From Pecten maximus (lineage: Eukaryota), in contig NC_047024.1 in NCBI RefSeq assembly GCF_902652985.1, forward strand, positions 24,986,001 through 25,050,000: a stretch of DNA of 64,000 nt, read 5' to 3'. Positions 36,480 through 60,244 of the stretch are shown here, piece after piece (the stretch's first letter is position 1; every line of letters starts with the position of its first letter). The notes beneath the pieces are model-generated. The model was not told where the DNA came from. It worked only from the letters and a program-made list of their open reading frames with translations, and searched no databases. The position numbers and the translations under genes were made by a program.

Positions 36480-39400
36480 CTAGGAACTGTCCATGTCTTC
36501 AATTATAGGAGATTCCTTCATCAAACCAGACACTGTCGCCGTCTCCTGAACCTGAAAAATCAATAAGATTGGTTCACTACCAGACATTTACCTGCGTTAG
36601 TGACTTTTCTTAATGGGTTTCCCCTCAGTTGGGATATATAGCACAGCTAATACCAAGGTAATTCTTATTTTACAATTAGTCCATTAGTCCCACCAGTTTT
36701 AACCTCAAGATTTTTTTTTAGATAATGATAATGTTGTGTTTGAAATTCAAAATTCATTGTAGGCCATTTATTATAAAGAAAACCAAACATTGAATAGATT
36801 AAGATGTTGTTAATGTTTGAGATAAAAACAAGAACATCATTACTCAAAAGATAGGCAGCATTCTTTAAGATTTGGACCTGTATTAAGGTAACTGTACTCT
36901 TAAGATGCTCAAATACACATTTTGTGCTCGGGCTCAAATGCTTCTGATGATAAATCAGATGTCTGATTAAATATTTTTTCAAAGATTTGAAGGAATTTCA
37001 GAAGGATTTTAAGAGAAATATTGTATTTTCAATGTTTAGATTTTTCTTTTCAACTGCTAAATTCATGATTTAAGCCAGTTTAAAGAAAGTTGTGTTGAGC
37101 ACAGATTCTATGTTTGACCATGAGAATGGTTTTCATGAATGTGTGTCCATGTGTTTCTCTTACTAGAATATATACAGAACTGGATACATTGTATTAGTAA
37201 CCTTGGAACTGACCACACAATTGACCACTCCCCTTTATTCAATTTTCAAATTTCAAATTTATTCTGTTTTACAACTTCAGTAAAGAAGCACCAAGGACAT
37301 AAAGTCAAAATTTAAGATTAATTTTCATTTCTGTGATAATAATATATGGTACATGTATTCGAAGAAGAGGTAAAATGGGCTTGTATTGGTCTGCTTCTCT
37401 TGTCTCAATTTCAAAGTCGGATAAGGTCATTTAAAGACAAAAGTAGATGCTAGAGGGACAGATAAGTTATTGCATTAGTTCACTCTTCCCTTCGGCTCGA
37501 TGGTCTAGAATTATAAATGCAAGTATCAAGCTACCAATATTATCAACATACCTGTCGTAGGTATTCCTCGCACTCCTGTGACGCCTGAAACAAAAGCTGT
37601 GCCTGGCCTTTCAGTACCCTCACATTCCACGAGAAGTTGTCTATTGCCTGGCAAAGTAAAGTATTAGCAGCCACGATTACATTCTGATAAGCCGTTACAG
37701 TTGATCTAGGACATTATAAGGATTATAATTTAATTTGAATATAACTGAGGACTAACCTGGATGATGTGCATCCTTATGTGATTTGTCTATGTCAATATTT
37801 ACCTTTTTTACTTTCTTTTCTCGCAGACCAGCCTTCTGGCAGACATCTGTCAACTCTTCATGCCATTCGAGACCTGCTCTACAGCAATGCAACAGCTGTA
37901 AAACAGAACATTATAACAGTTACACAACATGGAAGTTGGGGCAACACCCGAAAATAACAAAATCTTTCTATCAGTTTGTTTGTTGGGTTCATTGCCCAGT
38001 GAACAGCCATTGTCATTTTGAGGCAGATGGTCCTTGTAGTAGCTGGTAGATACCTCACTGAGCAATATATGGGAGGCCTTTCACATGCCATCCAGAGCAA
38101 TTAAGGACATAACCATGACAAAACAGACCAGTCTATTTCTCGGCTTCTCGAGAAACACAAATCACCACGGGAAGGGAGAGTTGAACCCTTGGTGGTTTGT
38201 GGTTTTCTTTTATTAGAATTTGAAGGATTGATTTATCTCTGCTATTCCTTTTTAGCCCAGCCCCTCTACCCGAGGAAGGTCGGACACTATCTGTTTATTC
38301 TTGAATTACCTTCATCCAGGGATATTTCAGACACATTAGGTCGGACACTATCTGTTTATTCTTGAATTACCTTCATCCAGGGATATTTCAGACACATTTT
38401 GTTTAGTTTTCACTTAGCTTTTCTGTACGAGTAGTTTTTTGAAGGAAGCAATTGATAAAGGGAAAACAAATGCTGTACCATGAGTGTAAGCCAACTGATT
38501 CTTCAGAAATTTTATTTTATGGGAAAATAGATTGACCTTTGACCCTTGGTGTGAAATTGAACTTTAAAAGATGGACACATGTGTGACCAGACATGGATAT
38601 TTAACCTTCTATAATGATAAAAATACTAAGATTTAGAAATTGAGGTGTAAATTAACAAGCAAGAAATCAAAATTTTTGATTTTCCGGCTGATACGTACCC
38701 TTTCATACACTTTCCCACTATTCTGCACCAATAATTTGCAACTTTCTAAAAACTGCAAAGAAAAAGAAAGAAGATGGATGAAAAGAAAAAAACAAAACCA
38801 CTTCTTTAGCATTACAAAATATAATTCTTCAGACACATGAATCTTTCACCAAGATACCAGGGTTACATTACCCAATTGGGGTGAAAAGGCATCGGATCAC
38901 CTGACTTTTCTGAGATTACAAAGATTCCCTCCCAGACAAAGACCCATATGTTCTATTAACTTGACAAAAACAGGTAATTGATATAAGATGGTAAAACTTG
39001 ATTATCTAAATGAATAATTTAAATTTTAATGATATGATCAAGATTTAATTACTGCATGTATACAAAAAAACTCACCTCCATGTTGTAAAAATTCATAGCA
39101 CTTTTTAATTTATTTGGAAGATCACCAACAGCTTCTATGATAGGGTAGAGTTGCTGGAAAAGATCAAAGTAAGAAAGTGGAGATTACAACACAAAACACG
39201 GAATGTTATTAGTTCTTATCAATGACCTAGATACAGGCTTACTTCAAAACAAGATGTTCATGACAAAAACTTTGAACAGTAGTGATCTGCTACTAATGGA
39301 TAATAATGCAGAAACATATTTTATTCTCCTTTCAAATATACATTGTACATGTACATGTGAAATTTTCATAACAACTTCTACCAACCTCACACTCTCTGAC

Positions 39401-42400
39401 CTCTACTAGCCTCACACTCTCTGACCTCTACTAACCTCACACTCTCTGACCTCTATTAACCTAACAGTCTCTGACCTCTACTAACCTCATACTCTTTGAC
39501 CTCTACAAACCTCACACTCTCTGACCTCTACAAACCTCACACTCTCTGACCTCTACAAACTTTATTCTCTTTGGCCTCTACTTACTCAATAACATATGAC
39601 CTCTACTTACCTCATGCTCCTTGGTGCAAATAAAGTAGATGGAAGCATGCTGGCTGGAGTTAGACACCCTGGTTGCTAGGAAACGGATACACTGCTTGAT
39701 GCTAGCTGTTGGAGACAAACTACACTTGTCCTTGAAGGCGCAGAGGTCATCCTGGACATTTTCCCTCATATCCATAGCATCCCTCAGAGGCTGAATTGAT
39801 ATCTATCACAAACAATATATATATATACATGTATATAATCTAGGTCATGGGTGTGACCCAGTAATAAATAGAATATAGTTTGAGTGTTTTACTCAGTTAT
39901 AAAAATAATCTAGGTCAAGTGTTTGACCCAGATATCAATATAATCTAGGTGGAGTGTTTGACCCAGATATTAATTTAATCTAGGTCGAGTGTTTGACCCA
40001 GATATGAATATAATCTAGGTCGAGTGTGTGACCCAGATACAAACATAATCTAGGTCGAGTGTGTGACTCAGATATAAATATAATCTAGGTTAAGTGTGTG
40101 AGCCATGCAGTTATGAATTTACAATCATCTTATCACAAAGACTTAACTGCCCACCTCCCTAGGGTACTTGTAATGTGTGAACTTTAAACCTTTAGCTTCA
40201 ATATCCATTAAAACCTTATCAGGCATATACATAGAATACAAGGTAACTAAACTATTGTGTAATATACATTAAATCTGACACCATTGATATATACCACTAC
40301 AATGGTGGCCTCGTGTCATTGATATATATACCACTACAATGGTGGCCTGGTGTCATTGATATATATACCACTACGTACAATGGTGGCCTCGTGTCATTGA
40401 TATATATACCACTACAATGGTGGCCTCGTGTCATTGATATATACACCACTACAATGGTGGCCTCGTGTCATTGATATATACACCACTACAATGGTGGCCT
40501 CGTGTCATTGATATATACACCACTACAATGGTGGCCTGGTGTCATTGATATATATACACCACTACAATGGTGGCCTCGTGTCATTGATATATATACACCA
40601 CTACAATGGTGGCCTCGTGTCATTAATATATACACCACTACAATGGTGGCCTCGTGTCATTGATATATACACCACTACAATGGTGGCCTCGTGTCATTGA
40701 TATATATACACCACTACAATGGTCGCCTCGTGTCATTAATATATACACCACTACAATGATGGCCTCGTGTCATTGATATATATACACCATTACAATGGTG
40801 GCCTCGTGTCATTGATATATATACCACTACAATGGTGGCCTCGTGTCATTAATATATACACCACTACAATGATGGCCTCGTGTCATTGATATATATACAC
40901 CACTACAATGGTGGCCTCGTGTCATTGATATATATACACCACTACAATGGTGGCCTCGTGTCATTAATATATACACCACTACAATGATGGCCTCGTGTCA
41001 TTGATATATATACACCACTACAATGGTGGCCTCGTGTCATTGATATATATACCACTACAATGGTGGCCTCGTGTCATTGATATATATACACCACTACAAT
41101 GGTGGCCTCGTGTCATTAATATATACACCACTACAATGATGGCCTCGTGTCATTGATATATATACACCACTACAATGGTGGCCTCGTGTCATTGATATAT
41201 ATACACCACTACAATGGTGGCCTCGTGTCATTGATATATATACACCACTACAATGGTGGCCTCGTGTCATTGATATATATACACCACTACAATGGTGGCC
41301 TCGTGTCATTAATATATACACCACTACAATGATGGCCTCGTGTCATTGATATATATACACCACTACAATGGTGGCCTCGTGTCATTGATATATATACACC
41401 ACTACAATGGTGGCCTCGTGTCATTGATATATATACACCACTACAATGGTGGCCTCGTGTCATTGATATATATACACCACTACAATGGTGGCCTCGTGTC
41501 ATTGATATATACACCACTACAATGATGGCCTCGTGTCATTGATATATATACACCACTACAATGGTGGCCTCGTGTCATTGATATATATACACCACTACAA
41601 TGGTGGCCTCGTGTCATTGATATATACACCACTACAATGGTGGCCTCGTGTCATTGATATATACACCACTGCAATGGTGGCCTCGTGTCATTGATATATA
41701 GACCACTACAATGGTGGCCTCGTGTCATTGATATATAGACCACTACAATGGTGGCCTCGTGTCATTGATATATACACCACTACAATGGTGGCCTCGTGTC
41801 ATTGAGGAGTAAAACTCACTTTGAATGTTTCGTCTACTGTCTTCACTCCTATGGATTTCATACTAGGGTAATTCCTGAGGGCTCTATTCCCAGGTACAAA
41901 CTTACGATGATTAGCAGAGATCTGAAGTAAAGAGAAACAATTGTTACCTACTATATAGTTTTTACAGAATGTGTGGTTATACACACGAGAATGTTGTATG
42001 ATACTGTATTTATCTGCAAATAAGACCCTGGTCTCTTCTTCATTTTGAGGATAAGTACGTTAACACAGTACTCAACCTATAGAGACTTGTACTCATAAGT
42101 AAATTGTACATGCTGTTGTTATTCTCGTTTGCAGAGAAATTAGAAAATTAATACTGATACACTGTGTTCTGTATTCGACATTGAAAATCTACTTCTTAGA
42201 GAAAAAACTAAAGTTATAAACTATCTCTTACCTGGCTGTTATTGTCATGTCTGTCCAACTTACCTGGTTATTGTTTTTGTTCGTTAGAGCTACATGGACA
42301 AACAATGAGCACTTTTCTATAGGCTGGCTGTTCTCCCCCAGCAAACTCACATGACGGTATCCTGTAGACAAAAGATGCTGTTAATAGATCTGATAATATT

Positions 42401-45400
42401 GTCTTATTCTTACATGTTTGTTACGCGAAAATGTTAATGACCACTGAATAAACTTGGCACAAAACATAAACCAAAAAAAATTGCTCAAAAAAATAAACTT
42501 AGCACAAAACATAAACTGAAAAAAATTGCTCAAAAAATAAACTTAGCACAAAACATGAACCGAAAAGTCCCTGGAACATGTCAAAAATTTGAAAAAATAG
42601 AAAGTATTCCTATCAGAACATCAATGCCATAAATTGGGATAACAACATATTATCTGATTTAACTGTAGATCACTTAAGAAACTTGCACCAAAATGTTGAC
42701 CAGTTCTTGAGGCTCAGACAGAGGTGGTACATATACTATAATATATATAGGTACCATAATATGTCCATCAAAGTTTAACAGGCATATAGTAATAAATGAT
42801 ATCCTCTCACCTGTCCTGATACAGGTAAATGGTATAATAAATGATATCCCCTCACCTGTCCTGATACAGGTAAATGGTATAATAAATGATATCCTCTCAC
42901 CTGTCCTTATACAGGTAAATGGTATAATAAATGATATCCCCTCACCTGTCCTGATACAGGTAAATGGTATAATAAATGATATCCCCTCACCTGTCCTGAT
43001 ACAGGTAAATGGTATAATAAATGATATCCCCTCACCTGTCCTGATACAGGTAAATGGTATTGTGTATTGCCCCAGCAGTCTGTCCTCTCCTATAAGGGTC
43101 TTGGCTCGTGCTTCAAATCGTACTAGTGCCAGCTCCGGCATCTTTATCTGGAGTTCAAATGTTTCCTCCTCAAACATTGTTGCGAATGACGAAACTACAA
43201 AAATAAATACCTGTATAACAATCCTATTTGAGTTCAAGATTGCCCATAACATAAATTTTGTTAGACACTGTAAATATATGTGTGACAAGGTATTGCTGAA
43301 CATCACTTTTGCCCTTTACCAGTTCACTGTCCAGAGGCTGTTTTGTTAGTTTCAGTAATGATAAAATTGACCTCTGACCTTAGCTTCTGATTTTGAAAAA
43401 AATCTATCATGAGCAAGCACTCATGTTGATGAGAGAAAATGAATTTTCAAATAGCAATCTCAAACAAGCTGTAGGGAATCACCGTGTGAGGTTTGAGTTA
43501 ATTAAGTCCAAGCGAACGTCAGTCATTGCACAAAAAAATGTTTTCAATTTCTATTTAAAGTAACAGTGACCTTGACATTTGACCTTTTGACTCCAAAAGA
43601 AGCAAACATTTCTGATAAGAAAATGATGAATCTGTGATTCATCCACTTTAACTTGCATTATTGTCCAGAAATCGTGATGTTTATGGATGGATGGAACGAC
43701 AGAATGATGGATTGTCCCTTTCCAATCGTTAATAGTTACACCTCGTGGAGCTGTGGTTGGCTGTAGGTCCCAATTGTCTAATTGTGCATGATGTCATATA
43801 CATGTCATATACATGTACATTGTGATGTCCCCAGAGAAAGAAGCAGGGCGTGATGATGTGGGCATTTTCAATTTATTATCAGCCTGAGTAAATGTTTTTT
43901 GAAAGTGTTTGTAAAAAAGTTTTGGTATAAACAGAATTATACATGATCTTCCATATCATATATAATTCATAAAACTAATCTAATCTTTTTTCAACATTAA
44001 AGAGTCACTGGAAAATGAACAAAAAAATCTGATTTGTTTCATGACTCTAACATAAAATGGAAACTCTTATAAAATCTTATATATTTATTTCATAATCTAA
44101 TAACTTCCAGTGTTATTTTAAAATAATCACACTTAAAAGTATAACCTGAAATTTGCCCTTGTTTTGGACATACATACTATACAATTGTGAAAACTGTTAT
44201 TGAATATTTTTAAACTTAAATAAAAACACACTATATCTTACAATACAATTTGAAATAGCTAATTACTGAATACATATAACAATTAGTATAAAGATGTCCA
44301 CTTTTTCACTAATATTAACATTTAAGCCTTTGTTTATGAGTACAGTATTCAAATTTTTCCATAAACTATTCCATATGACATTTATGCCCAGAAGATATTA
44401 TAATAAAGAGTTAGACATGAGAAATTTGTATAAAATGCTAACCTTCACCCTGGTGGGGTTTAGTCTGGGAGTTAGACATGAGAAATTTGTATAAAATGCT
44501 AACCTTCACCCTGGGTAGGTTTAGCCTGGGAGTTAGACATGAGAAATTTGTATGAAATGCTAACCTTCACCCTGGGTGGGCTTAGTCTGGTACATGGCCT
44601 CATCAGCTGGGATCCCAATAATTCTAACGGAGACATAGATCTTGGTACCTTCCATCCTCACTTTACAGTTGGAGAAATTCTGTCCACTCACGACCTGTAA
44701 GGAAAGGGAAATGTTTCACAAATATCCCAAGTCTAATATGATGACTTAACAGCACTGCCGAACACTAACCATTCCAAACATATACTTTTTCCACACCAGA
44801 AATATTTTACCATGCCACAACATGATGCCCCAAATCAAGTTAAAATTCCTTTACCAGTACTTTAGGAGTATGATTGTCAAGATTTACCTTCTAAAACTAG
44901 ACCCTAACAATTCTCAAAGCCTGTTAAATTTTAGTCAAAATCTCTTCAGCCATTCTTAAAAAGTAGACTTTTTAATGAAAAGAAAGATTGATGGATAGAA
45001 AACAAGAAGGAAGTTTAAGACACTGTACATTGTACCACAGCACATCAAAGCTCACCCATGGCCCTTCATACCTTACAATGGATCCCAATGGTTTGACCTC
45101 TGACCTCTGACAACTTACCATATAACCCCTATATCAGACTGGACATACCTTGATGTGAAGGTCCATTTGTTGACTGGTCAGTTCATCCTCTATATGAGAG
45201 ATGGTGTTGGATTGGCTAGGTTTTGGGGTGAAGTACGAGTAGATGTCGCGGATGACCTGTGGCTGGAGAACGTACCCACACTGACCGTTCTTCATGAAAA
45301 AAGCTGTGTTTAACTCTGTAGGAAGTCCAGGGGTCTGGTAGTTCAGGGCCACTAGCAAAACAACATCCGTACATTACACTCATACCATATTAATCCAGAA

Positions 45401-48400
45401 ATAAGTCTATTCCAATATTAAGCCAAACCATATTAAATGCTGTTCAATAAAATAACTAACAATCTTGTAATTTGCCAGGGTAATTGTCCTGTAATAAGCC
45501 CACCCCAGGACACTGAAGTCAGACATTTTATATTTGTGAGCCCTCTGCAGGATTAAAACTTTAGTACAGAGCGTTACTGCATCATCGGATACCTGGTGAT
45601 AAGTAGCGTAATATAGTGCAATTAATTGTGGGTATCCAACGATGGCATTACCGATATCTGGCTCAAAAGTCTTATTCTTTCCATGTTTATGATCAAAAAA
45701 TAATTCTATAAACTAAAATCTATGATGAATATACATATGTATGATGTAAATTACACATGGTTTAAACCAATGGCAGGTCAGCCCTGGATAGCTAGTTTTG
45801 TACAAGTGAGCCCTGGAAGCTGAATTATTATTTTCATTACAACGAAAAATCTCACCCATCTGACATCCACAGTTCCAAAACTCGCAAGGTAAAAAATTAG
45901 ATGAGTTGATTCTGTTTGCTTTTGGGTAAATTCTGGAGATGAATCTTTTGTTATAGTTGATGAACTCCTCAGGACGTTCACGACACAACATGGTGGCTTT
46001 GCTCTCTCCGAAGGAACACATTTCGTAGTACTTTTCTGTAAATCATCCATAGCCTTATTGACCAGGGTTTTATACTTGATTACACTTTAAGATGTTGAAA
46101 AATACATTTTAGTAGATATTTACTCATGTTGATAAGTAGAGCTTACTCTTATTAAGGACCCAGCTGTATCATGCATTGTTAGCTTAATCCAACAGTATCA
46201 ATTGTCATTAAAACTAACAATACATGTACAGAGATCAAATTTTCATGGGTATACAAAATATTTCAATAGACCAATAGATTTTTTGAATACAACTAAAACA
46301 CATATTTATAGGTTTTAATAATTTTATAATCTAATTAAATGTAATTAAGCTCTGTTTCTTTAAAATTATCATCAAAACTGATTTTTACAGATACAAAGAA
46401 ATCAATTATTTATTCTATAGGCACTTACGCTGCTGTATGGAGACTTCAAAGTCTTTAAAGCCTCTGGATGCGAAGTAGACAACAAGATCAGATAACTCCT
46501 TCGCTAACTTGAGCGTATGACTGCTGTCATCCTGTAATGGAAGGATTTTAGAAAATTTATTAATTTTTTTTGTAAACAATAAACTTTATTTATTTTACAA
46601 CAATTATGAATCAAATCATATCAACATATAATATCATATTTGTTGGCCCAGATGGAAGTGCTAGAGGGGTCTCACTGTGGGAGGAAACTGAGTTACACAG
46701 ATAAAATGGTCAGGCAGCTAGGTCATTTTTGCGTGTCCGATCGGGGAAACCAGGGAACAGTGAAATGCCCCCCTCACCCCAATTTTTATAAACATACTAA
46801 ATTAATATTTGTTTTTAAATGTAAACTTATTTATTTATTTTACTATAACAATTTATACAAACTTATATTTATCCCTCTTCATGGCCTGGTTGGATGCATG
46901 CAAGGGTCTTACTGTGGGAGGAAACTGTAGTACACTGGTGTCTAAAGGTGAAAGGCAAGTGTGTTACCACTGTGTCACCTGACTACTCCATTGTTTTAGT
47001 GTAATAGGCAGTTCTAATACATTTTTAAGTAAAATACTTAAGACTCTTTGACAGCAGACTAAAACATTACATTTAGTATTTATTACGGACAAAAACCTTT
47101 TTCTTCTTCTTTTCTTCTCCTTCTGTTTCTTCCTCCTCCTCATCTGATACCACATCAACATCCTTGTTGGCAGTCTTGGGCAGCTTTTTATTCTAAAGAT
47201 AATAAATATTTAATTTAAAATATTTTATATAAGGAAGATGTCTAGCTTTTATTTTATATATTCATACCAGTTTTAAATCAAACAGTAGTGATAATATCAG
47301 AGGTATCTTGTGTAAAGGATACAATTTAATGGGCAAGGGTGACAATTCAATAAGTAAGAGAGACAATCCTTCTGGCATAGGCATACAAATAAATTGCCAT
47401 ACCTCCCGGCGTGAGACAAAATCTCCCTTATTTTCAAGTCATTTATTTCCTCCCGGCAGGAGAGCCAAAATTCCCGTATTTTGTAATTCCCTCCGGTATT
47501 TTTGCCGACGCCATTTTTATTTACAATTCAGTGTTTTTCTCGCGAGATTTTGCTAAATTTAGCGATCACGTGATCCATCTGTGCAGAAAAAAACTAAAAG
47601 TAAGGTCAGATGTAGCAGAGATAATCATACAAGCAGGACTGTCAGTGCAACAGACAAGGAAGATAATCCAAAAGACAAGGGAGATAATCAACAGACAAAA
47701 AGACGATCAGTCAAGGGAGATAATCCAACAGACAAGGAAGAATACACAATAGACAAGGAGATTATCCAAAAGACAAAGCGATTATACAACAGTCAAGGGA
47801 GATAGGTCAATAAGCAAGTGAGACAATCCAATAAGCAGAGGAGACAAACAGACAAGGGGAGATTATCCAACATACTAGGAATATTATCCAACAGATAAAG
47901 AAGATAATCCAATAAGCATGGGAGACAATCAAACAGATAGGGGAGACAATTCAATAAGCAGGGGAGACAATCAAACAGGCAAGTCTGTCATTCCTTTACG
48001 CAGAGGTGATAAAGGTGGTGTTAGTCATCAGATAGGAATGACAATCTTTCAAAAAGGGTGACATTTATAAACATCCTGACACAGGTTTCATCTTCATTTC
48101 TTAACTTAAAACTTTCCATAGAAAATCTAGTTCAGGAGCTTTTTGTAAATAATTTCTTACAAGAAAATTGTTAAGTTAATAAGCTTCCCTGGAATATTGA
48201 TGAAACCTGGGTCCAGAAGGGGAGATAACTGTGGGATTTAGAACAACTCACCTTGATAAGAACTTTCCTTTTGAGCTCATTAGGTGAGGGCAATACTGTT
48301 CGTTGTGTGTCTGCCTCCTCATGATAGAGATTATCACCCAGAATTTGAAGTAAGAACTCGGCCATTTGTTTCTGGAACTTGGGACTACAGTGATTCTCTA

Positions 48401-51400
48401 AAGACAGCACAACTGGGTATCTGGAGAAAAACAATAATGGAGATATTTTTCATTGTGTGTTGGCTAATCAGATATTTATAAATAATAAGAAAGTATTCAT
48501 AATTATCCATTTTTCGAGTTTGATTTTAGACAACTTTTTCCATGCTTCAAATTTTGTTTTAGTTTTTAGCTCACCTGCCCGAAGGGCAAGTGAGCTTATG
48601 CCGTGGCGCGGCGTCCGTCGTCCGGCCATCCGTTCGGTGTCAACTTTTCCATTCAAGCAACTTCTTCTCAATAACCAAAAGGCCCAGAGACCTAATATTG
48701 GGCCTGTAGCATGCTGGGGTGAAGGGCTACCAAGTTTGTTCAAATGAATAACGTTGACCTTCATTCAAGGTCACAGGGGTCAAAAAGGCTAAAATCTTTA
48801 AAAGACTTCTTTTCAATAACCAAGAGTCCCAGGGAGTTGATATTGGGTCTGTAGCATGCTGGGGTGAAGGGCTACCAAGTTTGTTCAAATGAATGACCTG
48901 ATTTGTATGATGTATGTATGTGTGCATGTATTGTGTATGTATGTGTGATATGGGTCAATCAAGTGCGATTACAGGTTGTGAGTCAGTAATGGTAAGTGTG
49001 GATTTCCACGCTAGACCATAACACGACTGGCTCACAGCTGGTGATCATGATTGACCTATCCAACTATCATGAAGTGTATGTATATATGTATGCATGTATG
49101 TACATGTGTGGTATGTATGTAATTATGTATGTGTGATATGGGTCAATCAAGTGTGATTACAGGTTGTGGGTCAGTAGTGGTAAGTGTGGATTTCCACGCT
49201 AGACCATAACAAGACTGACTCACAGCTGGTGATCATGATTGAAGTATCCAAATATCATACGGTGTATGTACAGTGTATGTATGTATGTATGTGTATGTAT
49301 GTATGTATGTATGTATGTATGTATGTATATGCGAAATCAATGTGCGAGATGCAATCAAGTGAGTGACGTAATAATTAAATATGTATATATGGTGAGAGAA
49401 ATTATTTAGGAAGTAATGAATCCAGTGTATGAATGTGTGTAATACATTGAAAGAAAATAAAGGAATGAAATGTGTAAATGAATGTAAGGTGATGAATGAG
49501 AGCCCTCTTGTATGAGGATATATTTGTCAGGATACTGAATCCAGGGCCTCAACCCTGGCAGCAGTCCAAATTTTTAAATGTTCTGGGGCATTAAAATTTC
49601 TTGTACCTTCAAAAAAAAAAAAAATATGCTAAAAAAAAATTAAACGACTTCTTCTAAATAGCCGAAAGACCCAGGGACTTGATATTGGGTCTGTAGCATG
49701 CTGGGGTAAAGGGCTACCAAGTTTGTTCAAATGAATGACCTTGACCTTCATTCAAGGTCACAGGAGTCCAAAAGGCTAAAATCTTTAAACGACTTCTTCT
49801 CAATAACCAACAGTTCCAGAGACCTAATATTTGGCCTGCAGCATACTAGGGTGAAGGGCTCCCAAATTTGTTCAAATGAATGACCTTGACCTTCATTCAA
49901 GGTCACAGGAGTCAAAAAGACTAAAATCTTTAAACGACTTCTTCTCAATAAACAAGAGTACCAGAGACCTAATATTTGGCCTGTAGCATGCTGGGGTGAA
50001 GGGCTACCTAGTTTGTTCAAATGACTGACCTTGACCTTCATTCAATGTCACAGGGGCCAAAAAGGCTAAAATCTTTAAACAACTTTTTCTCAATAACCAA
50101 GAGTCCCAGGGAGTTGATATTGGGTCTGTAGCATGCTGGGGTAAAGGGCTACCAAGTTTGTTCAAATGAATGACCTTGACCTTCATTCAAGGTCACAGGA
50201 GTCAAAAAGGCTAAAATCTTTAAACGACTTCTTCTCAATAACCAACAGTCCCAGAGACCTAATATTTGGCCTGTAGCATGCTGGGGTAAGGGCTACCAAG
50301 TTTGTTCAAATGAATGACTTTGATCTTCATTCAAAGTCACTGGAGTCAAAAAGGCTAACATTTTTAAACAACTTTTTCTCAATAACCAAGAGTCCCAGGG
50401 AGTTGATATTGGGTCTGTAGCATGCTGGGGTAAAGGGCTACCAAGTTTGTTCAAATGAATGACCTTGACTTTCATTCAAGGTCACAGGAGTCAAAAAGGC
50501 TAAAATCTTTAAACGACTTCTTCTCAATAACCAACAGTCCCAGAGACCTAATATTTGGCCTGTAGCATGCTGGGGTAAGGGCTACCAAGTTTGTTCAAAT
50601 GAATGACCTTGATCTTCATTCAAAGTCACTGGAGTCAAAAAGGCTAACATTTTTAAATGACTTCTTATCAATAACCAAGAGTCCCAGGGAGTTGATATTG
50701 GGTCTGTGGCATGCTGCGGTAAAGGGCTACCAAGTTTGTTCAATTGAATGACCTTGACCTTCATTTTCAAGGTCACAGGAGTCAAAAAGGCTAAAATCTT
50801 GAAACAACTTCTTCTCAATAACCAAGAGTCCCATGGAGTTAATATTGGGTCTGTAGCATGCTGGGGTGAAGGGCTACCAAGTTTTTTCAAATGAATGACC
50901 CTGACTCACATTCAAGGTCACGTCAATCAAGTATGCTTAAATCTTTAAATGACTTTTAGTGAAAAGCCAAAGTGCAGAGAGACATTATATTGGTCCTGTA
51001 GCATGCTTTCAAATAACTGCAGGATCCATATTTGAAAAGATCACTGCATTACAGGTGAGCGATTTGGGCCCATTGGGCCCTTGTTAAAACTTACTCTGAT
51101 GTGTGAAATGCCCATTCTTTGACACATTTGATGACATCTTGAAACAAAATGGCTGATGTCAGACTTAATGAGCCATGCTTGATGATAGGGCCATCATCAT
51201 ATCCATCATAGCAGTCCACTGTAAAATAGACATACACTTTACAATAAACAAGTAAGTAAAGGAATATTTAACATCGATCTTTTCCCTTTTTTTTTTGCAA
51301 CCTGACAAAATTGTTCATTTTGAAGTTGCAAAGAAATATTTAATAACTTTCCCCTTTGCAGTGGAGTATTATCCTGCCAATTTTGATTTACAGAACCTTG

Positions 51401-54400
51401 ATAAGAAGTGAGAGACTTACATTCCACACAACGACAGCCGGCCAACAACACCTGTTTGTATTGGTCAACACTGGCCGGACTCTTCACTTGGTCACCGGAC
51501 AGGTATCTACAGTAAACACAGAAAGACTATAAGTAATTACATGTTAACATGATGAAATACAGGTAAACATTCTGTAACTACAGGTTAACATATACAGGAA
51601 ACAACTACAGGTATGTATCAGTAAGTTATATATTGAGGCAGAAGTGTCCAAGATTTTGTGAAAACTGGCTATGTAACTTACCTGTTGTGAAACGTGTTGT
51701 GAGAACTGGCTATGTAACTTACCTGTTGTGAAACGTGTTGTGAGTACTGGCTATGTAACTTACGTGTTGTAAGAACTGGCAATGTAACTTACCTGTTGTG
51801 AGAACTGGCTATGTAACTTATGTGTTGTGAGAACTGGCTATGTAACTTACGTGTTGTGAGAACTGGCTATGTAACTTGCCTGTTGTGAGATGTGTTGTGA
51901 GAACAGGCTATGTAACTTACCTGTTGTGAGATGTGTTGTGAGAACTGGCTATGTAACTTATCTGTTGTGAGATGTGTTGTGAGAGCTGGCTATGTAACTT
52001 ATGTGTTGTGAGAACTGGCTATGTAACTAAGGTATTATGAGAACTGGATATGTAACTTAAGTGTTGTGAGAACTGGTTATGTAACTCACGTGTTGTGAGA
52101 ACTGGCTATGTAACTCACGTGTTGTGAGAACTGGCTATGTAACTTACGTGTTGTGAGAACTGTCTATGTAACTTACATGTTGTGAGAACTGGCTATGTAG
52201 CTCACGTGTTGTGAGACGGGTTGTGAGAACTGGCTATGTAACTCACGTGTTGTGAGAACTGGCTATGTAACTCACGTGTTGTGAGAACTGGCTATGTAAC
52301 TTACGTGTTGTGAAACGTGTTGTGAGTACTGGCTATGTAACTTACGTGTTGTGAGAACTGGCTATGTAACTTACATGTTGTGAGAACTGGCTATGTAACT
52401 CACGTGTTGTGAGACGGGTTGTGAGAACTGGCTATGTAACTTACATGTTGTGAGAACTGGCTATATAACTTACGTGTTGTGAGATGTGTTGTGGGAGCTG
52501 GCTATGTAACTTATCTGTTGTGAGAACTGGCTATGTAACTTACGTATTGTGAGAACTGGCTATGTAGTAGTTGTTGATCGGATGATTCATTAAATCCTCA
52601 CACACTGTTTTTTCATCAGGGTTAAATATGTCACACCATTCATTGGAACACAGAAACTCTGTAAATCCTAGAAAACATGAAAATTATCAACAAAGATAAG
52701 TAGAATAAAAACTATGAAGATGCCCTTTATTACTCATGACATCATTCAGAGGAATGATTGAACATTTTCTAAAGTATGGTTGCTTCTCACATTTGTTTTA
52801 CTTTTTCTACAGTGAATATTGTGGGTACACCAATTAATCCATTATTGTGATAATGTGTTAAAATTTTTGTAATGGACTGTAATTTGATTTTTCCCAGAAC
52901 TAATGTATTAACAGTACTGTACTTAGAGGCTAAGACATCAAATTGTGTCCCAAAGTAGAGGCAGTACAAACAGCATTTGTTGGTATTTTGAGTTACAATT
53001 GAGATATGTGGGCTTATTACCAGGCCTGGACCTATTGATGGATGATTACGATATATATTGACACATTTATATAGACACTGATACCATAGTAGCATGTGAA
53101 ATGTCATTACAAATTGTTGTTTTGAAGACATTAACATGTAATATAAGACACTAATACTCCTGTAGGTCTAGGTTTTGTTATATTTACCATCTATTCCCAT
53201 CTGGCCCTGTTTGACATGCTCTGGTGACGGCTCAAAACTCTTGATTATGTACAGACAAATATCTTTGGTCACCCTGGACATCTGAAAAGGTGGGAAACAA
53301 GGGTTGTTTAACAGGGAAGGGTTATAGGCTAATTAACATTCTGTGTTTAAAGGGGAAAATTAATATCGGTTCTTTTTGACAATCTATGACTATGTCCATG
53401 ATTTTTTTCTAAAACAAACAGTTTATTAAAAAGGGCAGAGTGTTTAAAAATGAATGTAACCTAAGTAAAAAAAGCACAACACTGAAGAATTAAAAAAATT
53501 ACAACTAGTTCACCAGTTAAACAAATTTCAAAAATAGACACTTAGCTATATTGACATAAATCTGGTGATAACTGACAACATTTATTGATCAATTTAAGAT
53601 CAATGACATGAGGTATGATTAATTATTTTCCGTAGATCAGGAATGTCTTTGATCGCGATCATCTCTAGACCTTACCCCTTGTACTGATTCCATAAAGAGC
53701 AGAAGATCGTCTGTGGTGAGGTATGTACCATTACTAGCGTACCTGTAACAGAACATTTGGCTTTCCAAAAAAAACTACAACATATTTACAAAATCAATAT
53801 GTAAAAATCATCAAATCTTGGAAACAGTAATTTGATTTTAGCAGTTAACTACCCTTCAAAAATAAAAAAATCCAAAAAGATCGTTCCCGTGCTATTCCAT
53901 CCGGACTGTGAGTTTTCCGGACTATCGGCGTCCGGATTATCGCGGATCCACTGTATATAATTTCAACCAATACATTTGAAAATTTGACCTTTGAACTTCA
54001 GTCACAGCATCTTCAATAGAGCTTTGTCAAAACTTAAACGTTTACCAACTGATTTGAAAACTCTCACCTCTTATGTGATATTGCAATCATCATTTCTGAC
54101 CTTTTGGATTATCTTCAGTTGATTTATGATAACCTTTGATAAATTTTCCCAAGTCACCTAGACCTTTGACCTTTACAACTCTGTCCACCTTTACCTGGAG
54201 AGTAACTTACTGAATCATGAGGAGGTAGATTTCTGGCCGGGTAAACAGTTTCTTGTACAGAGATTTAAACTCCTCACATGTCACGTTTTCATTTCCTTTT
54301 GCTGATGCAAGTTCCTAAAATGAAAAAAAAAAGTAATTTTCAAGAATGACACATTACTGTAAATGCAATATTTTAGCAGTAATCATATTTTAGTTGTTTT

Positions 54401-57400
54401 TGCACTGAAAGCATTCCCCTCAATTTAGATTTCCCTAATTGCAGCCTCAGTAAATTGCTTTCTAGGGCAAGTAGTCTGATTACACCAATTAATCAATGTG
54501 CTTTAAATTCAGCATTGCGCTAAAACTTCAGAGCACAAAAATAAATATGCTTACAGTATTTAAGATTATGAAAACATTGTTAACCTCAGAAAGTTATCAA
54601 AGCTATATTCTAGCAATAGATGTATGTATCCCATGGGAGGACTCTTGAAATACAGAAATTCTATACATGGTGTTCTACTCATTATATGGTACTGTTTTAA
54701 TTTAATCACAATTGTTCTCAGTTCCTGTTCAACAAACCTGGATCCTCCCACTGGGTAGATATTCCTGGAATAGCTTTCAGTATAGAAGGTGATTGTATAG
54801 ATAAACTGCTGTGAAATTGATAGCTTACCATGGTGTTGACCCAGAAAGCCTTAACAAGCTTAATATTTTTTTTAGTACTTACTTTCAACTTTTGATTGAC
54901 ATGTTGATTGTGAAAGTTTTCGTTGAGTTTTTTCAGAAGAGCAGCAGCTCCTTTGCGGTCCAACAGTCCCGTATTTATGTCGGCTTCACCATTGAAACAT
55001 TCCTCCAACCATGTATAGATAGGTCAAGGTCAACAGAGGTCACAATACAAGGTAATCAACAAGAAAAATAGGTGTTAAGTACTAAGCAGGTCAACATGAG
55101 CTAAATTTTTTACCAAAAGTCAAATGAGTCACAATTTTAGTATTTTTGTACGACTTTTTAAGCCAATGTTACACTTTGAAGCATGTGCAGATCTATGAGG
55201 GAACAGATATGTTTATTATACAAGGCAGTACATTTTTCTTCCAATAAATTTACCATAAATACCAACAACTGCAAGATTAATATAAATTCCAACAGAAAAA
55301 ATTCCCAATAAAAAATATTTTTGTATATTTGTATATTTCAAAAGGATATCCCTCCCTTTCCTTGTCGGTATCAACAGGTTTTGAATCGGCTGAAATAATA
55401 AAAATATTAAGATTCAGAGACCAGATATATTATTAACTAATATCAGCAAAAAACTATATTTCACAAGTAATGTTAAACTATTTTATGATTTCTTCATTTT
55501 TTTACTGACTGGCAAGATGGAAATATCCCACATACATGTACCAGTCCTTAGTCATCATTAAATACATAAATGTACCTACATGTATATTCAAAATACCTCG
55601 CCAACCTTTACAGCAAACTGATAAGATCTTAATGATAAAATGCGCCCCTAATGAGATTTTATCCTGAATCCATGATATCAATGTTTAAAGCATTTGTATA
55701 ATTATATGTAAATATGAATATCAGGACTCTATTAACAGCAATATGTCTAGTCATGTCATGATTTATCAAAATTAAAAAAAAAAAAAAAAATATTATTATC
55801 CGGCAACTCTGAGATAAGTTAGCCTACAATTACCCTAAATTTATCATACCATATAATACAGGAAAGATCAGGAACACTAGAGGGTGGCCTCGTAGGGTTG
55901 AGGTGAACATTTATATCTGAGTGGTGTTGGAGGAACCACAGTAAGACACAATCATACAGAAATGGGTTAGTACACAGGCACAGTGAAAGAAATTATTTAC
56001 AAGTGATATTCATCAGGAAGGGGAGGTAATTTACAGGCGTTTTTCATCAGGAAATGGACATAATGTACAGTTGTTTTTAATCACTAAGGGGAGATATTTC
56101 ATAGATATCTCCTATCAGGAAGTGGATATAGTTTTCAGGCATGTTATATATTATATCAGGAATGGGAGAAATTTTAAGGACAGTAATTCAGAAACAGGAG
56201 ATAATTTACAGGTATAATTCAGCAGGGATAATAAATTAGGAAGGGGAGATAATTCACTGGTGTAGTTTAACAAGGACAATAAATCAAGAAGGGGAAATCA
56301 TTTATAGGTAGAATAAATTAGGAAGGGGAGACAATTTACAGGTATAGTATATCAGAATGAGAGGAGAGTAAATTAAGAAGGGGAAACAATTTGCAGGTGT
56401 TTTCACTTCAAAGGATCAGAAAGGCCAGAGGTTTATTACAAGATTATTATATCAGGAAGGGGAGATAACTAATATGTTTAGTAGATGTGAAAAGGGAGAT
56501 AACTTACATATATATCATATCAGAGAGGGGAGACAATTTACAGATATATCATATCAGAGAGGGGAGATAACTTAAAGTTTATCACATCAAGAAGGGGAGA
56601 TAACTTCAAAAAGACCAATTGTAGTACACCAGGGAAGAAACAACATTTGTTGGCATACTAATCTAGCTAGTAGGACTAAAAATACTTTATATAATATATG
56701 AAAATAATAAAGAGATATTTCTAAACTTCTGTGTTACAGGGTAATGATTGGAGAGTTGGGGACGTTATCGAACTCAAATTTGATGTATAACTAGATCATG
56801 ATTTGCTGAATTACATATACATGTATTTTTTAACCCATATAAAAGTGTGTTTTTTAAGTACACATCTTCTTTGCATTTATACTGTCATTGTGACTTTATC
56901 CTAGAATTGTCAAAAAACAATATGTTCACTATTCATATTCTTCCAGGCATGCATTCATTACACACATTGAATAACTGCAGTGTGACTTGAATTTGTGTCC
57001 AGTGACCTAGTTTTGACCCACAAAGAAGTGAGAATGAGGAGGACAGTATAATGATATATGGATGGCAATCAACACGAGGTGAGAAGAACAAATTGGTATG
57101 CTGTCCAACTACGACATCTTACCTTCTGGGGCAGGTTCCTCTGAAGAGTAACGCAAGAGGTGTTACCATGGTAACCATGGTTTTACTGGCAGGGGCCAAA
57201 GACTAACAATATCATGTCATCTACTTAAACGTGCTTTATCACACAACTGACATGTTCTGTCGTGTCATATGACCCACGACATCAATATTGTTAGACGTAT
57301 GTGTTAATATATCCTTATAGGTGATAAATAAATAATGTCATGATGATGTCACAATTTTTGTAGAGAAAAAATTATCGCTGAAGTTGAAATTAGACAGTCT

Positions 57401-60244
57401 TATAAGGAAATCAATTTGACAGTTTTCATAAAATTATCTATGTGATAAATAGAATATCACACTCCTGGCTATGCAATAGGAAATTTATCGAACTTGTTAA
57501 ATACATTATTATGTCATTCACGTAAGGGCTTGTGACATCTAAAATATTTAAACTCATTTAATAAATTTCAAACTACATTGACACTCCTTAAAGATCCCTA
57601 GTTTTAATCAATTGATTATTCAAGTTATGGATAATTGATATACATATACATGTATATGTTTCCTAGAGTAAATGTGAAATTTGTCTTTGGTAAACAAATA
57701 TGTTAGAATAGTATGGTGAATATAACCTATGGTAATTTGTTATGGTAATTTGTTCAGCATGGAGGAAGCCAATTCCATCAACTTTAAGAGTAAATAATTT
57801 CGTACCTGTTTTCTGAAATCTAATGAGTGCTGTTATGCCAGTGATCCACAGAGCTGCCGTTTCCTCACAGTCAGCTACCAGGTAAAGAGGTTTACTGTCA
57901 CTGTTGAACTTGATGGTGAAACACTGATTGGCGTTCTGACAAAGATGATTTACTTTCTTATGTTTAAATGCATCAGCTGTGTTTCCAATGACAAGTTCCT
58001 TAAAACTGGCAGTGGGCACTGAAACAACAGATATACTCAGTCATTGGGCACTGAAACAACATATATACTCAGTCAGTAGGAAATGAAACAACATATAGAC
58101 TTAGTCAATGGGCACTGAAACAACAGATATACTTAGTCAATGGGCACTGAAACAACATATATACTCAGTCAGTAGGAAATGAAACAACAGATATACTTAG
58201 TCAATGGGCACTGAAACAACAGATATACTCAGTCAATGGGCACTGAAACAACAGATATACTCAGTCAGTAGGAAATGAAACAACATATATACTCAGCCAA
58301 TGGGCACTGAAACAACAGATATCCTCAGTCAATGGGCACTGAAACAAAAGAAATAATCAGTCATTGGGCACTGAAACAACACACAAATATTCAGTCAATG
58401 GGAAATAAACCAACAGAAATACTCAGTTAATGGGAAATAAAACAACAGAAATACTCAGTTAATGGGAAATAAAACAACAGAAATACTCAGTCAATTGGCA
58501 CTGAAACAACAGATATAATCAGTCGATGGGCACTGAAACAACAGATATACTCAGTCAATGGGCACTGAAACAACAGATATACTCAGTCAATGGGCACTGA
58601 AACAACAGATATACTTAGTCAATGGGCACTGAAACAACACACAAATATTCAGTCAATGGGAAATAAACCAACAGAAATACTCAGTTAATGGGAAATAAAA
58701 CAACAGAAATACTCAGTCAATTGGCACTGAAACAACAGATATAATCAGTCGATGGGCACTGAAACAACAGATATAATCAGTCGATGGGCACTGAAACAAC
58801 AGATATACTCAAGCAATGAACACTGCAACAACAGCTTTACCCCATCAGTAGGCTAAACATTTTTCTACTTTATGATAGCTGGAATCTTAATGGAATAAGA
58901 TAGAATCATACCTTCACCGCCATGTTTACTTGGCTTCCACTTTAATGCCATTCTGTCATCACTCAGACAGAACGTCTTATCGAGGTGGACCTGGCCATTC
59001 CTAATCTTGGCCAGTTTTGAACCTTTCTGCATGAATAACCAGGCTTCTTGTGCTGAAACAAAGACAACAGAACAGAACTTTCATAGGTGACTCTTAGCAG
59101 ATTGTTTGTTTGGTTTATCCCCCTGTGAACAACCAGAGTTTGAGATGGTGCCTCTCTGTAGTAGCTGTTGGCTATCTAACTGTATGGCATTTACATGTAT
59201 TACTGTTAAAGCTTTTTCTGAGCAAAAAGACATACTTTTGTCAAATGATACACTACCCATTTATTGTTCTTCACAGTAAAAAAGACAATGAGACAATTTG
59301 TAACTTAAATTCATTCTCTGGACCTTTACTAGAATACTAGAACAGTTATGTCTCAAAATGGTCATTTTGTTATATGAATGACATAAAAAAGAAAACATCA
59401 TATCTGTTAATGTTGATAAGTAAGGGATGTTTTTATTGTTTTATGTCCTATAAACACAATGAGATCATTTAAGAATGGGCCCCCGACGGATGCTTATAGT
59501 GTTATCATACTGAAATGCCACACCTGGACTAATGTGTCAAATAATACTGACGAATGAACCAGACCTTCCAGTGTAACTTTTGACCAGAACGTCAAGAGCA
59601 ACTTAACAGAAAGCATTGATTTCATAGATTTTGGTTTGTCTCGACCAAAGCCTTCCTCACAGGGGCGAGCACTCAAGTAAAGGCCAAATGTGAGGCAGTG
59701 TCAAGGAAGACATTAAGAATTGAAAAGTTGCTTAGAAGGAAGAGAAAAGGATAAGATCCATAATTTAGTCACCCATTACAAATCATATAACAGAGAGCTG
59801 CAGAACAGATACAATTATTATCAGCTAAAGAGGTTCATCATTTTTATTTAAACATAAGATTTGAGACTGTATCAGATCTATTAAGCATAATTACATTTGT
59901 AAAAACATGAAAGGATGTGGTTAATGAAACCATTCTTAGAGAAACTAAGGTTGAAAAATAAATGAAAAATCATTTGGAGAGAATTAAATCACTCTTTCAC
60001 TTATAGTTTTTTAGGAAACAAATCACTGTTCCAATCAGTCTTATGGTGTTTCAAGAGAATAAATACTGTATTTTAATCACCTACCTCTGATTTCGTTGAT
60101 ATGTCCGTCAGTCGAAGACGATAACCGCATACTAGATCCAAACCCTCCAGAGTTGCGCTTCATACTCAAGCTGGACCCAACTCGTCTCATCTCGGTAACG
60201 GACGGGGAATTGTTTAACGTCAGACTTTGTGACCTCCAGGCCAT
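36480..60244 (-). CDS. PLCL: Phospholipase C-like protein (PLCL/PRIP family), gene B; apparently complete 27-exon CDS of about 1041 aa (PH, EF, X, Y, C2, C-terminal tail)
   Basis: Exons in minus-strand order: 60244-60085 (ACAACAATGG start), 59052-58912 (AWLFMQKGSKLAKIR, PH), 58018-57806, 57140-57123, 55389-55350, 55012-54883, 54314-54211, 53742-53676, 53281-53188, 52667-52544 (YYIASSHNT), 51506-51421, 51218-51095 (LDCYDG..IIKHG), 48420-48252, 47192-47097, 46531-46429, 46035-45856, 45351-45149, 44694-44565, 43194-43036, 42361-42264, 41921-41820, 39802-39611, 39153-39076, 38752-38699, 37895-37803, 37647-37552 ([13 protein letters not shown]), 36551-36480 (TAG). The sum of 3126 nt is divisible by 3. 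Many exon lengths equal those of gene A (86, 169, 180, 98, 102, 54, 93, 96 nt). The first exon, the micro-exon and the donor at 47096 are the least certain parts. Confidence 0.9.
37975..38190 (-). mobile_element. Truncated SINE (family 2)
   Basis: GTGAACAGCCA..CATTTTGAGGCAG..CTTGTAGTAGCTGGT..CATGCCATCCAGAGCAATTA shared with other copies. Confidence 0.65.
39383..39615 (-). repeat. 25-bp tandem array resembling the donor of exon 39802-39611
   Basis: Minus-strand unit TGAG|GTTAGTAGAGGTCAGAGAGTG versus real donor TGAG|GTAAGTAGAGGTCA. Confidence 0.8.
39835..40100 (+). repeat. Roughly 35-bp degenerate minisatellite
   Basis: TAATCTAGGTCGAGTGTGTGACCCAGATAT recurring. Confidence 0.8.
40282..41805 (+). 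repeat. 37-39-bp minisatellite (about 40 copies) filling most of an intron of gene B
   Basis: CATTGATATA(TA)TACACCACTACAATGGTGGCCTCGTGT. Confidence 0.96.
42790..43060 (-). repeat. 45-bp x6 tandem array of exon end plus donor (gene B, C2 exon)
   Basis: Minus-strand unit ATACCATTTACCTGTATCAGGACAG|GTGAGGGGATATCATTTATT; reads IPFTCIRTGEGISFI in frame. Confidence 0.95.
44409..44590 (-). repeat. Roughly 61-bp x3 tandem array of exon end plus donor (gene B)
   Basis: Minus-strand unit CCAGACTAAGCCCACCCAGGGTGAAG|GTTAGCATTT..CTCATGTCTAACT. Confidence 0.92.
48563..51085 (+). mobile_element. HINE-like element carrying a satellite-like internal array of about 145-bp units, interrupted by an insertion at about 48900-49640
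   Basis: 5' TTTTTAGCTCACCTG..GTGAGCTT, CGTCCGTCGTCC microsatellite, alternating units (..TGTAGCATGCTGGGGT(G/A)AAGGGCTACCAAGTTTGTTCAAATGAATGACCTTGACC..), 3' CAGGTGAGCGA plus GGGCCCATTGGGCCC hairpin and TTGTT. Confidence 0.85.
51660..52567 (-). repeat. Roughly 29-bp tandem array made of the exon end plus splice donor of gene B (same intron position as 3829-5410)
   Basis: Minus-strand unit TACATAGCCAGTTCTCACAA(C/T)AC|GTAAGT; the first copy is the real YIASSHNT exon end. Confidence 0.96.
55013..55349 (-). other. U12-type (minor spliceosome) AT-AC intron in gene B
   Basis: 5' splice site ATATCCTTT starting at 55349; branch-point-like ACCTTGAC at 55030-55023; terminal AC at 55014-55013. Splicing joins ..KEREG|WLEECF.. 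in frame. Confidence 0.88.
57123..57140 (-). CDS. Putative 18-nt micro-exon of gene B (EEPAPE)
   Basis: TTACTCTTCAG|AGGAACCTGCCCCAGAAG|GTAAGA on the minus strand; phase 1-1 and frame-preserving, between the PH and EF exons. Confidence 0.6.
58014..58832 (-). repeat. 32-bp tandem array of acceptor plus exon start (gene B, PH exon)
   Basis: Minus-strand unit ATTGACTGAGTATATCTGTTGTTTCAG|TGCCC; the last copy is the real acceptor at 58019. Confidence 0.93.

Follow-up and report, generated by a model that had tools for sequence, protein, structure and literature searches.

Two paralogous phospholipase C (PLC)-like genes of the scallop Pecten maximus carry, at the donor of the same homologous intron, a minisatellite that matches the exon-intron boundary of its own gene. 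Does this co-occurrence reflect a property of the site, a function of the repeats, inheritance from a common ancestor, or chance? The genes lie in a window of 64,000 nucleotides (contig C10:24986001-25050000 of the 918-Mb genome), which is the whole stretch of DNA analysed and whose first letter is position 1 of all window coordinates. The first-pass annotation, based on the letters of this window, proposed that the arrays arose independently or are continually regenerated from the exon, and took their shared position to indicate a site-specific hotspot or a selected function.

The protein nearest to one exon of gene A is P0003, named 'inactive phospholipase C-like protein 2', from Ylistrum balloti (79% identity on that exon). 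A tblastn search with P0003 places gene A on the plus strand and gene B, convergent with it, on the minus strand:

3737..21781, plus strand: the part of gene A inside the window, ortholog of the scallop PLC-like protein P0003.
37552..59052, minus strand: gene B, a PLC-like paralog with 23 coding exons mapped by tblastn, junctions and Pfam.

Gene A comprises 25 exons, seven of them upstream of the window, with mostly 75-100% identity to P0003 by tblastn. Gene B exons are mostly 27-68% identical to the same protein and follow an exon structure nearly equal to that of gene A, and both genes can be aligned to P0003 exon by exon. Pfam PI-PLC-X and PI-PLC-Y match single exons. The features by which membership in the PLC-like (PLCL/PRIP) group was judged are present, namely PH, EF-hand, X, Y and C2 in this order and a nearest relative named PLC-like; gene B is a predicted member of the PLC-like branch from similarity and shared exon structure only. 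It retains HN, RCVE-VDC, IIKHG and LSLENH (51421-51506, 51095-51218 and 48252-48420, minus strand), which we take to be the motifs holding the PLC catalytic residues, and gene A has RCVD where gene B has RCVE. Judged from sequence, the paralogs may differ in activity.

Over four exon pairs of equal length, 92 of 174 residues are identical between A and B (53%), and only 6 of 27 four-fold degenerate third positions agree, so that synonymous sites are saturated. These two counts indicate that the A/B duplication is ancient. Both paralogs also have, at the same place, an intron with the donor ATATCCTT, a CCTTGAC branch-like motif and an AC acceptor, which by the consensus is presumably of the U12-type AT-AC class. 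In gene B, this intron revealed a 40-nt exon at about 55389-55350.

55349-55013, minus strand: presumed U12-type AT-AC intron of gene B.
About -15044 to -14679 in window coordinates (upstream of the window), plus strand: presumed U12-type AT-AC intron of gene A.

The two minisatellites sit at the intron that interrupts SSHNTY. The features around it are as follows, with a slash marking the exon-intron boundary here and below:

3737..3854, plus strand: gene A homologous exon ending YFIASSHN-T(AC), 81% identical to P0003 372-418.
3829..5411, plus strand: gene A donor-spanning minisatellite, 31 bp x 51.1, unit of 26 exon nt + GTAAG.
5464..5517, plus strand: second copy of the gene A exon end, older and longer but lacking the donor; by eye, about 48 of 53 nt agree.
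6666..6751, plus strand: next exon of gene A, ...RCVD, 100% identical to P0003 412-439.
52544..52667, minus strand: gene B exon ending YYIASSHN-T(AC), with its final 23 nt forming the exon portion of the repeat unit (tblastn with P0003, junctions, RNA-like contigs of runs X6, X8 and X11).
51656..52566, minus strand: gene B donor-spanning minisatellite, unit of 23 exon nt + GTAAGT.
51507..52543, minus strand: gene B phase-2 intron of 1037 nt within the Thr codon of SSHNTY, donor TAC/GTAAGT (contigs of three runs).
51421..51506, minus strand: next exon of gene B, YLSGDQVKSP...RCVE (tblastn, junctions, loose-end letters of contigs).

Position and phase of the boundary are identical in the two genes, which confirms that one homologous intron carries a junction array in both; the junction itself lies inside the Thr codon and not between T and Y, where the first-pass annotation had placed it. 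The characteristics of a donor-spanning minisatellite are found in each gene: the edge unit lies across the boundary (26+5 nt and 51 copies in A, 23+6 nt and 28 copies in B), the unit is that of the gene itself, and many copies keep the GT. Gene B has the exon copy and 27 intronic copies, of which 17 are 29 bp long, nine are 41 bp long with an internal 12-bp duplication in the CACAAC part, and one is truncated. The 29-bp unit reported earlier is thus correct for the 17 copies, and the nine longer ones had gone unmentioned.

Over the final 23 bases of the exon, only five sites distinguish A from B. At these, the B base is present in 27, 26, 25, 26 and 26 of the 27 gene B copies, and the A base in 41, 14, 49, 49 and 49 of 49 gene A copies. 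Each array therefore carries the alleles of its own exon, as had been claimed, although the match is not complete: at one synonymous site in each gene, most copies have another base than the present exon, with AAC in 26 of 27 gene B copies against AAT in the exon, and TTC in 35 of 49 gene A copies against TTT. The older gene A exon-end copy (5464-5517) has TTC, as in the array. Directly behind it lies an 18-bp array (window 5521-6177) with a faint resemblance to the 31-bp unit.

Two further observations concern the gene B intron. Just 5' of the acceptor (window 51510-51620, minus strand), short TACCTGTA-like repeats that neither of our detectors called could represent an acceptor array in decay. 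In run X4, from another sample, a DNA contig passes at window 52516 from array sequence into letters that match a place on C2 (L283:1502-1530) and not this window; it is either an insertion allele in the array or a contig artefact.

An origin of the two arrays in separate events is supported by their own-exon alleles, their different breakpoints (26+5 against 23+6 nt) and the agreement of only 6 of 27 four-fold sites between the paralogs, in line with the first half of the earlier proposal. Its second half, in which the exon keeps regenerating the array, is disfavoured: in both genes most copies differ from the exon at one site, so that exon and array are not undergoing homogenisation at present. 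Spread of an array from another locus was rejected, as the 21-nt core of the gene B unit occurs 16 times genome-wide, always within the gene B array.

We also considered a single array older than the A/B duplication that each exon went on re-seeding through conversion or unequal exchange. Within the units, intron sequence is limited to the consensus donor, from which shared ancestry would be unreadable, and paralogs can inherit arrays. Two neighbouring SLC6 paralogs (C13:25977863 and C13:26043386; L240 and L242) have 39-bp donor arrays, similar by eye, of 23 and 35 copies at one homologous intron, a pair that was probably inherited from one ancestor. The saturated synonymous sites of A and B, the differences in unit length and at both breakpoints, and the one-site divergence of most copies from the present exon all speak against such a history for the PLC-like genes, and we consider it very unlikely. 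When metagenomes were scanned with P0003 for orthologous introns of other molluscs, 22 pattern matches emerged, of which none was confirmed.

Whether independent arrays at one donor call for a special cause depends on how often junctions carry arrays at all. Genes A and B have several others:

58013..58834, minus strand: gene B acceptor-spanning junction array, 32 bp x 25.6.
44408..44590, minus strand: gene B donor-spanning junction array, 61 bp x 3.
42790..43060, minus strand: gene B donor-spanning junction array, 45 bp x 6.
39377..39616, minus strand: degenerate 25-bp array behind a gene B donor, detected by a word test only and not by the TRF test, probably junction-derived.

Gene A has a second donor array of 52 bp x 19 (L024, window coordinates -14564 to -13500), the exon-nearest copies of which lack the donor bases.

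The background rate was estimated by searching the genome for PI-PLC-X, myosin head, kinesin, ALDH, SLC6 and SNF2 families and fetching the DNA around the matches. For myosin, kinesin and ALDH, 166 of 233 listed matches were used, namely those within the fetched DNA, with small-scaffold duplicates and long multi-stop matches excluded; SLC6 and SNF2 are represented by the covered part of their 116 and 60 matches, and four SLC6 matches were shortened by hand to one exon. Junctions are predictions by GT/AG scoring near match ends rather than annotation, and those below 3 bits were dropped. A junction array was defined as a TRF array with a period of at least 10 and at least 5 exon bases that starts within one period of the junction and runs into the intron; a looser word test served as second detector.

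By this definition, junction arrays occupy 9 of 208 donors and 3 of 166 acceptors in non-PLC genes, 5 of 47 donors and 1 of 48 acceptors in genes A and B, and 5 of 32 donors and 2 of 32 acceptors in other PLC genes (a third acceptor call, inside a donor array, was dropped). The pooled donor count is 19 of 287, and adding the word test raises the non-PLC donors to 14 of 208. The same rule applied at 4481 intronic points, 100-1000 nt from junctions in steps of 50 nt and hence not independent, gave 132 first-unit matches, or 2.9-3.7% depending on whether all points or the 3550 outside arrays are counted; the other 931 points, about a fifth of exon-near intron positions, fall inside arrays. Non-PLC donors do not differ from this intronic control (Fisher p 0.29-0.58). 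Arrays are more frequent at donors than at acceptors (19/287 against 6/246, p 0.024; with the discovery pair left out, p 0.055), a difference that a lower tolerance of decoy acceptors would explain. Arrays may be more frequent at PLC donors than at non-PLC donors (8/77 without the A/B pair against 9/208, p 0.09). TRF arrays make up 27% of the 200 kb contained in twenty evenly spaced 10-kb stretches, and in 1.14 Mb of DNA centred on genes their share is 23%; published scallop genomes are likewise described as rich in tandem repeats, at 21.7% (PMC10225492) and 11.3% (PMC5700196).

The chance that two such genes share at least one donor array among about 23 homologous donors is 4% at the non-PLC rate of 4.3% and 10% at the pooled rate of 6.6%, and it rises to 25-32% when calculated from the genes' own counts (two donor arrays in A, three to four in B). 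The pair was singled out for its match in a genome with many paralog pairs, and given this selection and a chance of 4-32%, coincidence is sufficient. The first-pass annotation had itself named a high genome-wide frequency of junction arrays as the circumstance in which co-occurrence is expected by chance, and this is largely what was found, with arrays at 9 of the 208 donors in non-PLC genes, at 19 of 287 in the pooled sample, and with four clear ones in gene B. A hotspot or a selected function is accordingly not established by the shared position. We regard it as fairly probable that each array had its own origin in a short tandem duplication of the ordinary kind that then expanded, that both are neutral, and that they share their intron by coincidence, such arrays being common. 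Counted against coincidence are a lowest chance estimate of only 4%, duplications at two of three further PLC donors, breakpoints 5-6 nt into the intron, the second exon-end copy in gene A, and the possible excess of arrays at PLC donors.

These points bear on a possible sequence-driven hotspot of tandem duplication at the HNT exon end (CAYAAYAC followed closely by the donor) that recurs in paralogs without function. HNT is a catalytic motif of phospholipase C. Five other PLC genes, with class names assigned by similarity, were read at this exon end. The beta-like gene at C3:23.6 Mb and the epsilon-like gene on C12 have no intron at the SSHN-T point. The PLC gene at C10:3.2 Mb has, in the same intron, a two-copy 30-bp duplication at the donor, missed by TRF, and a 22-bp x 36 array at the acceptor. 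The gamma-like gene has a clean donor here and a 74 bp x 16 array at the next one. In the beta-like gene at C3:17.08 Mb, the donor lies 10 nt further on and has a 25-bp x 32 array whose unit starts at the HNT codons. The C10 gene, a third PLC gene, has three clear junction arrays among 16 junctions checked (3205981-3206927, 3208123-3208354 and 3214172-3214387), the SSHN-T acceptor included.

Counted loosely, two of three PLC donors outside A and B are duplicated against a background of 4-10%, with a probability of at least two of three of about 0.012 at a rate of 6.6% and 0.028 at 10%. Four of the five PLC genes with a donor here then show a duplication (A x51, B x27, beta-like x32, C10 PLC x2), and the three large arrays (A, B and beta-like) all break 5-6 nt into the intron, compared with at least 14 nt in the other resolved donor arrays, one 2.7-copy SLC6 donor array being left unresolved in this comparison. 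The 12-bp duplication of the CACAAC part in nine gene B copies and the second event in gene A, the copy at 5464-5517, also favour a duplication-prone site. On the other hand, the beta-like donor belongs to a different intron and was added after the fact; among strict homologs the count is one of two, which is not significant, and that one has only two copies. Among 383 array units, CACAAC shows slight enrichment at most (15 against 7.9-9.1 expected; uncorrected p 0.016), and ACGT shows none (33 against 32). Folding does not distinguish donors with arrays from those without (19 against 268, p 0.72), and it is weak in the seeds of A and B (rank 0.77). Homologous SLC6 donors, with arrays in 2/15, 0/7, 0/8, 0/12 and 1/17, show no clustering beyond the one neighbouring pair.

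A hairpin of Tyr codon and donor as the cause of the breakpoints was rejected on the same folding comparison, and neither this comparison nor the enrichment of CACAAC and ACGT gave a sequence or structure that explains them. A general splice-like core of minisatellites was rejected as well: ACAGGT and CAGGTA are about 3-fold enriched in the 383 units, mostly from junction arrays, since CAGGT is scarce elsewhere (of 87 purely intronic arrays, 6 have it in sense and 6 in antisense orientation; 6 of 48 arrays of the evenly spaced stretches). The two further PLC genes thus offer a weak hint, and a sequence-driven hotspot at this exon end is a possible, if doubtful, account. The broader form of the idea, in which the catalytic-HNT exon end of PLC genes is a long-lived duplication hotspot where four of five genes were duplicated independently, three of them breaking right behind the donor hexamer, we also think rather unlikely. 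If it were true, a conserved protein motif and the splice consensus would jointly set where minisatellites arise, and the PLC site would offer a handle on how they are seeded.

The preferred reading, independent and neutral arrays, also has to accommodate the splice signals that the copies keep. Runs X6, X8 and X11, from three studies, are RNA by guess, and their contigs do skip the 520-nt upstream intron. In all three, contigs cover the gene B exon, leave it at 52544 and go on with the letters of the next exon, so the main gene B transcript uses the authentic first donor in three of three RNA-like runs, an observation that concerns gene B only. Reading into the array, examined over its near 170 bases, has no depth in X6 and X11 and a single 71-nt piece at depth 2 in X8; contigs lose rare forms, and minor use of the array donors would escape them.

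This first donor, TAC/GTAAGT, is weak. On a matrix from 266 sampled donors it scores 6.7, the 8th percentile of a set that was pre-filtered for splice score and so biases the percentile low, and 10 of the 266 have C at -1. Among the 26 gene B pseudo-donors are CAC/GTAAGT (6), CAC/GTGAGT (5), CAG/GTAAGT (4), CAT/GTAAGT (3) and CAC/GTGAGC (1), and 7 without GT, four of which read ATAAGT. It had been noted that some copies are closer to the consensus than the real donor and others dead, and this is borne out: 18 of 26 outscore it, and all four CAG/GTAAGT copies lie more than 600 nt from the exon. Comparison of donor scores with the contigs, a check that the first-pass annotation had suggested, shows that the three runs use the first, weak donor despite these stronger copies. 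Read-through of the donor gives ACG TAA at once, as predicted.

In five of 15 donor arrays, a decoy is stronger than the true donor. GT is gone from only 18 of their 322 pseudo-donors, and the first copy is dead in just one of the 15; these last two counts indicate that decoys are not generally purged. The pattern is as expected if position rather than strength decides donor choice and the copies are neutral. Selection against strong decoys within gene B was considered and rejected, GT being lost in 3 of 7 CAG copies against 4 of 19 others (p 0.34).

The arrays could instead be kept by selection, if additional U1-binding sites make a weak donor easier to recognise or adjust expression by way of unproductive splicing. 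The low score of the authentic gene B donor, in the pre-filtered set, and the retention of GT in 47 of 50 gene A and 19 of 26 gene B copies are compatible with this. Yet the gamma-like and C10 PLC genes have weak AC/GT donors here without large arrays, arrays occur on donors of all strengths (scores 6.7-14.1), gene B copies lose GT freely (7 of 26), and the near array is read in X8 only, by the one shallow piece. We find no support for the selected function proposed earlier and consider it very improbable.

For independent, neutral arrays, we propose the following course. The array would be seeded when a short segment spanning the donor was duplicated in tandem; at its distal end the gene A array reads GTAAGTA and its unit starts with TA, a 2-base microhomology, and in gene B the distal end is truncated. 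To judge from the anatomy, such a duplication would keep the first copy as an intact exon end and let the array grow only into the intron. Expansion of the unit may then be accompanied by local turnover that spreads drifted copies. The TAT/GT, CAT/GT and /AT variants (5 TAT/GT and 3 TAC/AT of 50 in A; 3 CAT/GT and 2 CAC/AT in B) would stem from C-to-T or G-to-A change at the CpG of the AC/GT junction, and the CAG variant may reflect a single change that turnover spread over the distal part of the gene B array. Splicing takes the first donor in gene B, at contig level, and would do so in gene A. Use of a later copy would put ACG-TAA into the message and would be expected to expose leaked transcripts to nonsense-mediated decay.

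Similar arrays have been described in other animals; our literature search found no genome-wide count of junction arrays in molluscs and no paralogs with arrays at one homologous intron. In amphioxus, 'mirage' minisatellites are reported from Adh3, the globins BflGb6 and BflGb9, troponin C and PGBD5, at donors or acceptors and with units of 10-160 bp (PMC3087553, PMC3902484). As described by Ebner et al. 2010 (PMC3087553) and in the PGBD5 paper (PMC3902484), they leave splicing intact. The scallop arrays resemble mirages, as portrayed there, in their tandem copies across an exon-intron boundary, the many splice signals kept, concerted turnover and normal splicing. They differ in occurring in a mollusc, in two ancient paralogs at one homologous donor, and with a measured background rate; length instability is demonstrated for mirages, and contigs of short reads do not reach across the scallop array.

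Human donor-spanning VNTRs are described for F7 intron 7 (37 bp), CBS intron 13, 6-16, lamin B2 and PDGF (PMC1557585), and according to Borensztajn et al. 2006 (PMC1557585) the most upstream of the repeated F7 donors is chosen. As in these accounts, the first scallop unit lies across the boundary, the donor is reiterated, and the most upstream one is used though pseudo-sites are equal or better. Intron sequence dominates the F7 unit (33 nt, against 4 of exon), whereas exon sequence dominates the A and B units (23-26 nt, against 5-6 of intron). For 6-16 and CBS, use of the nearest pseudo-sites is described as well; minor use of this kind is beyond what the gene B contigs can show. The arrays of genes A and B are thus a real, further example of known donor-spanning minisatellites. 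As a single case they add little to the known mirages; decoy arrays at 4-7% of scallop donors, extrapolated from 287 donors, suggest thousands of natural tests of first-donor choice and, by the same extrapolation, of the duplication model of intron gain.
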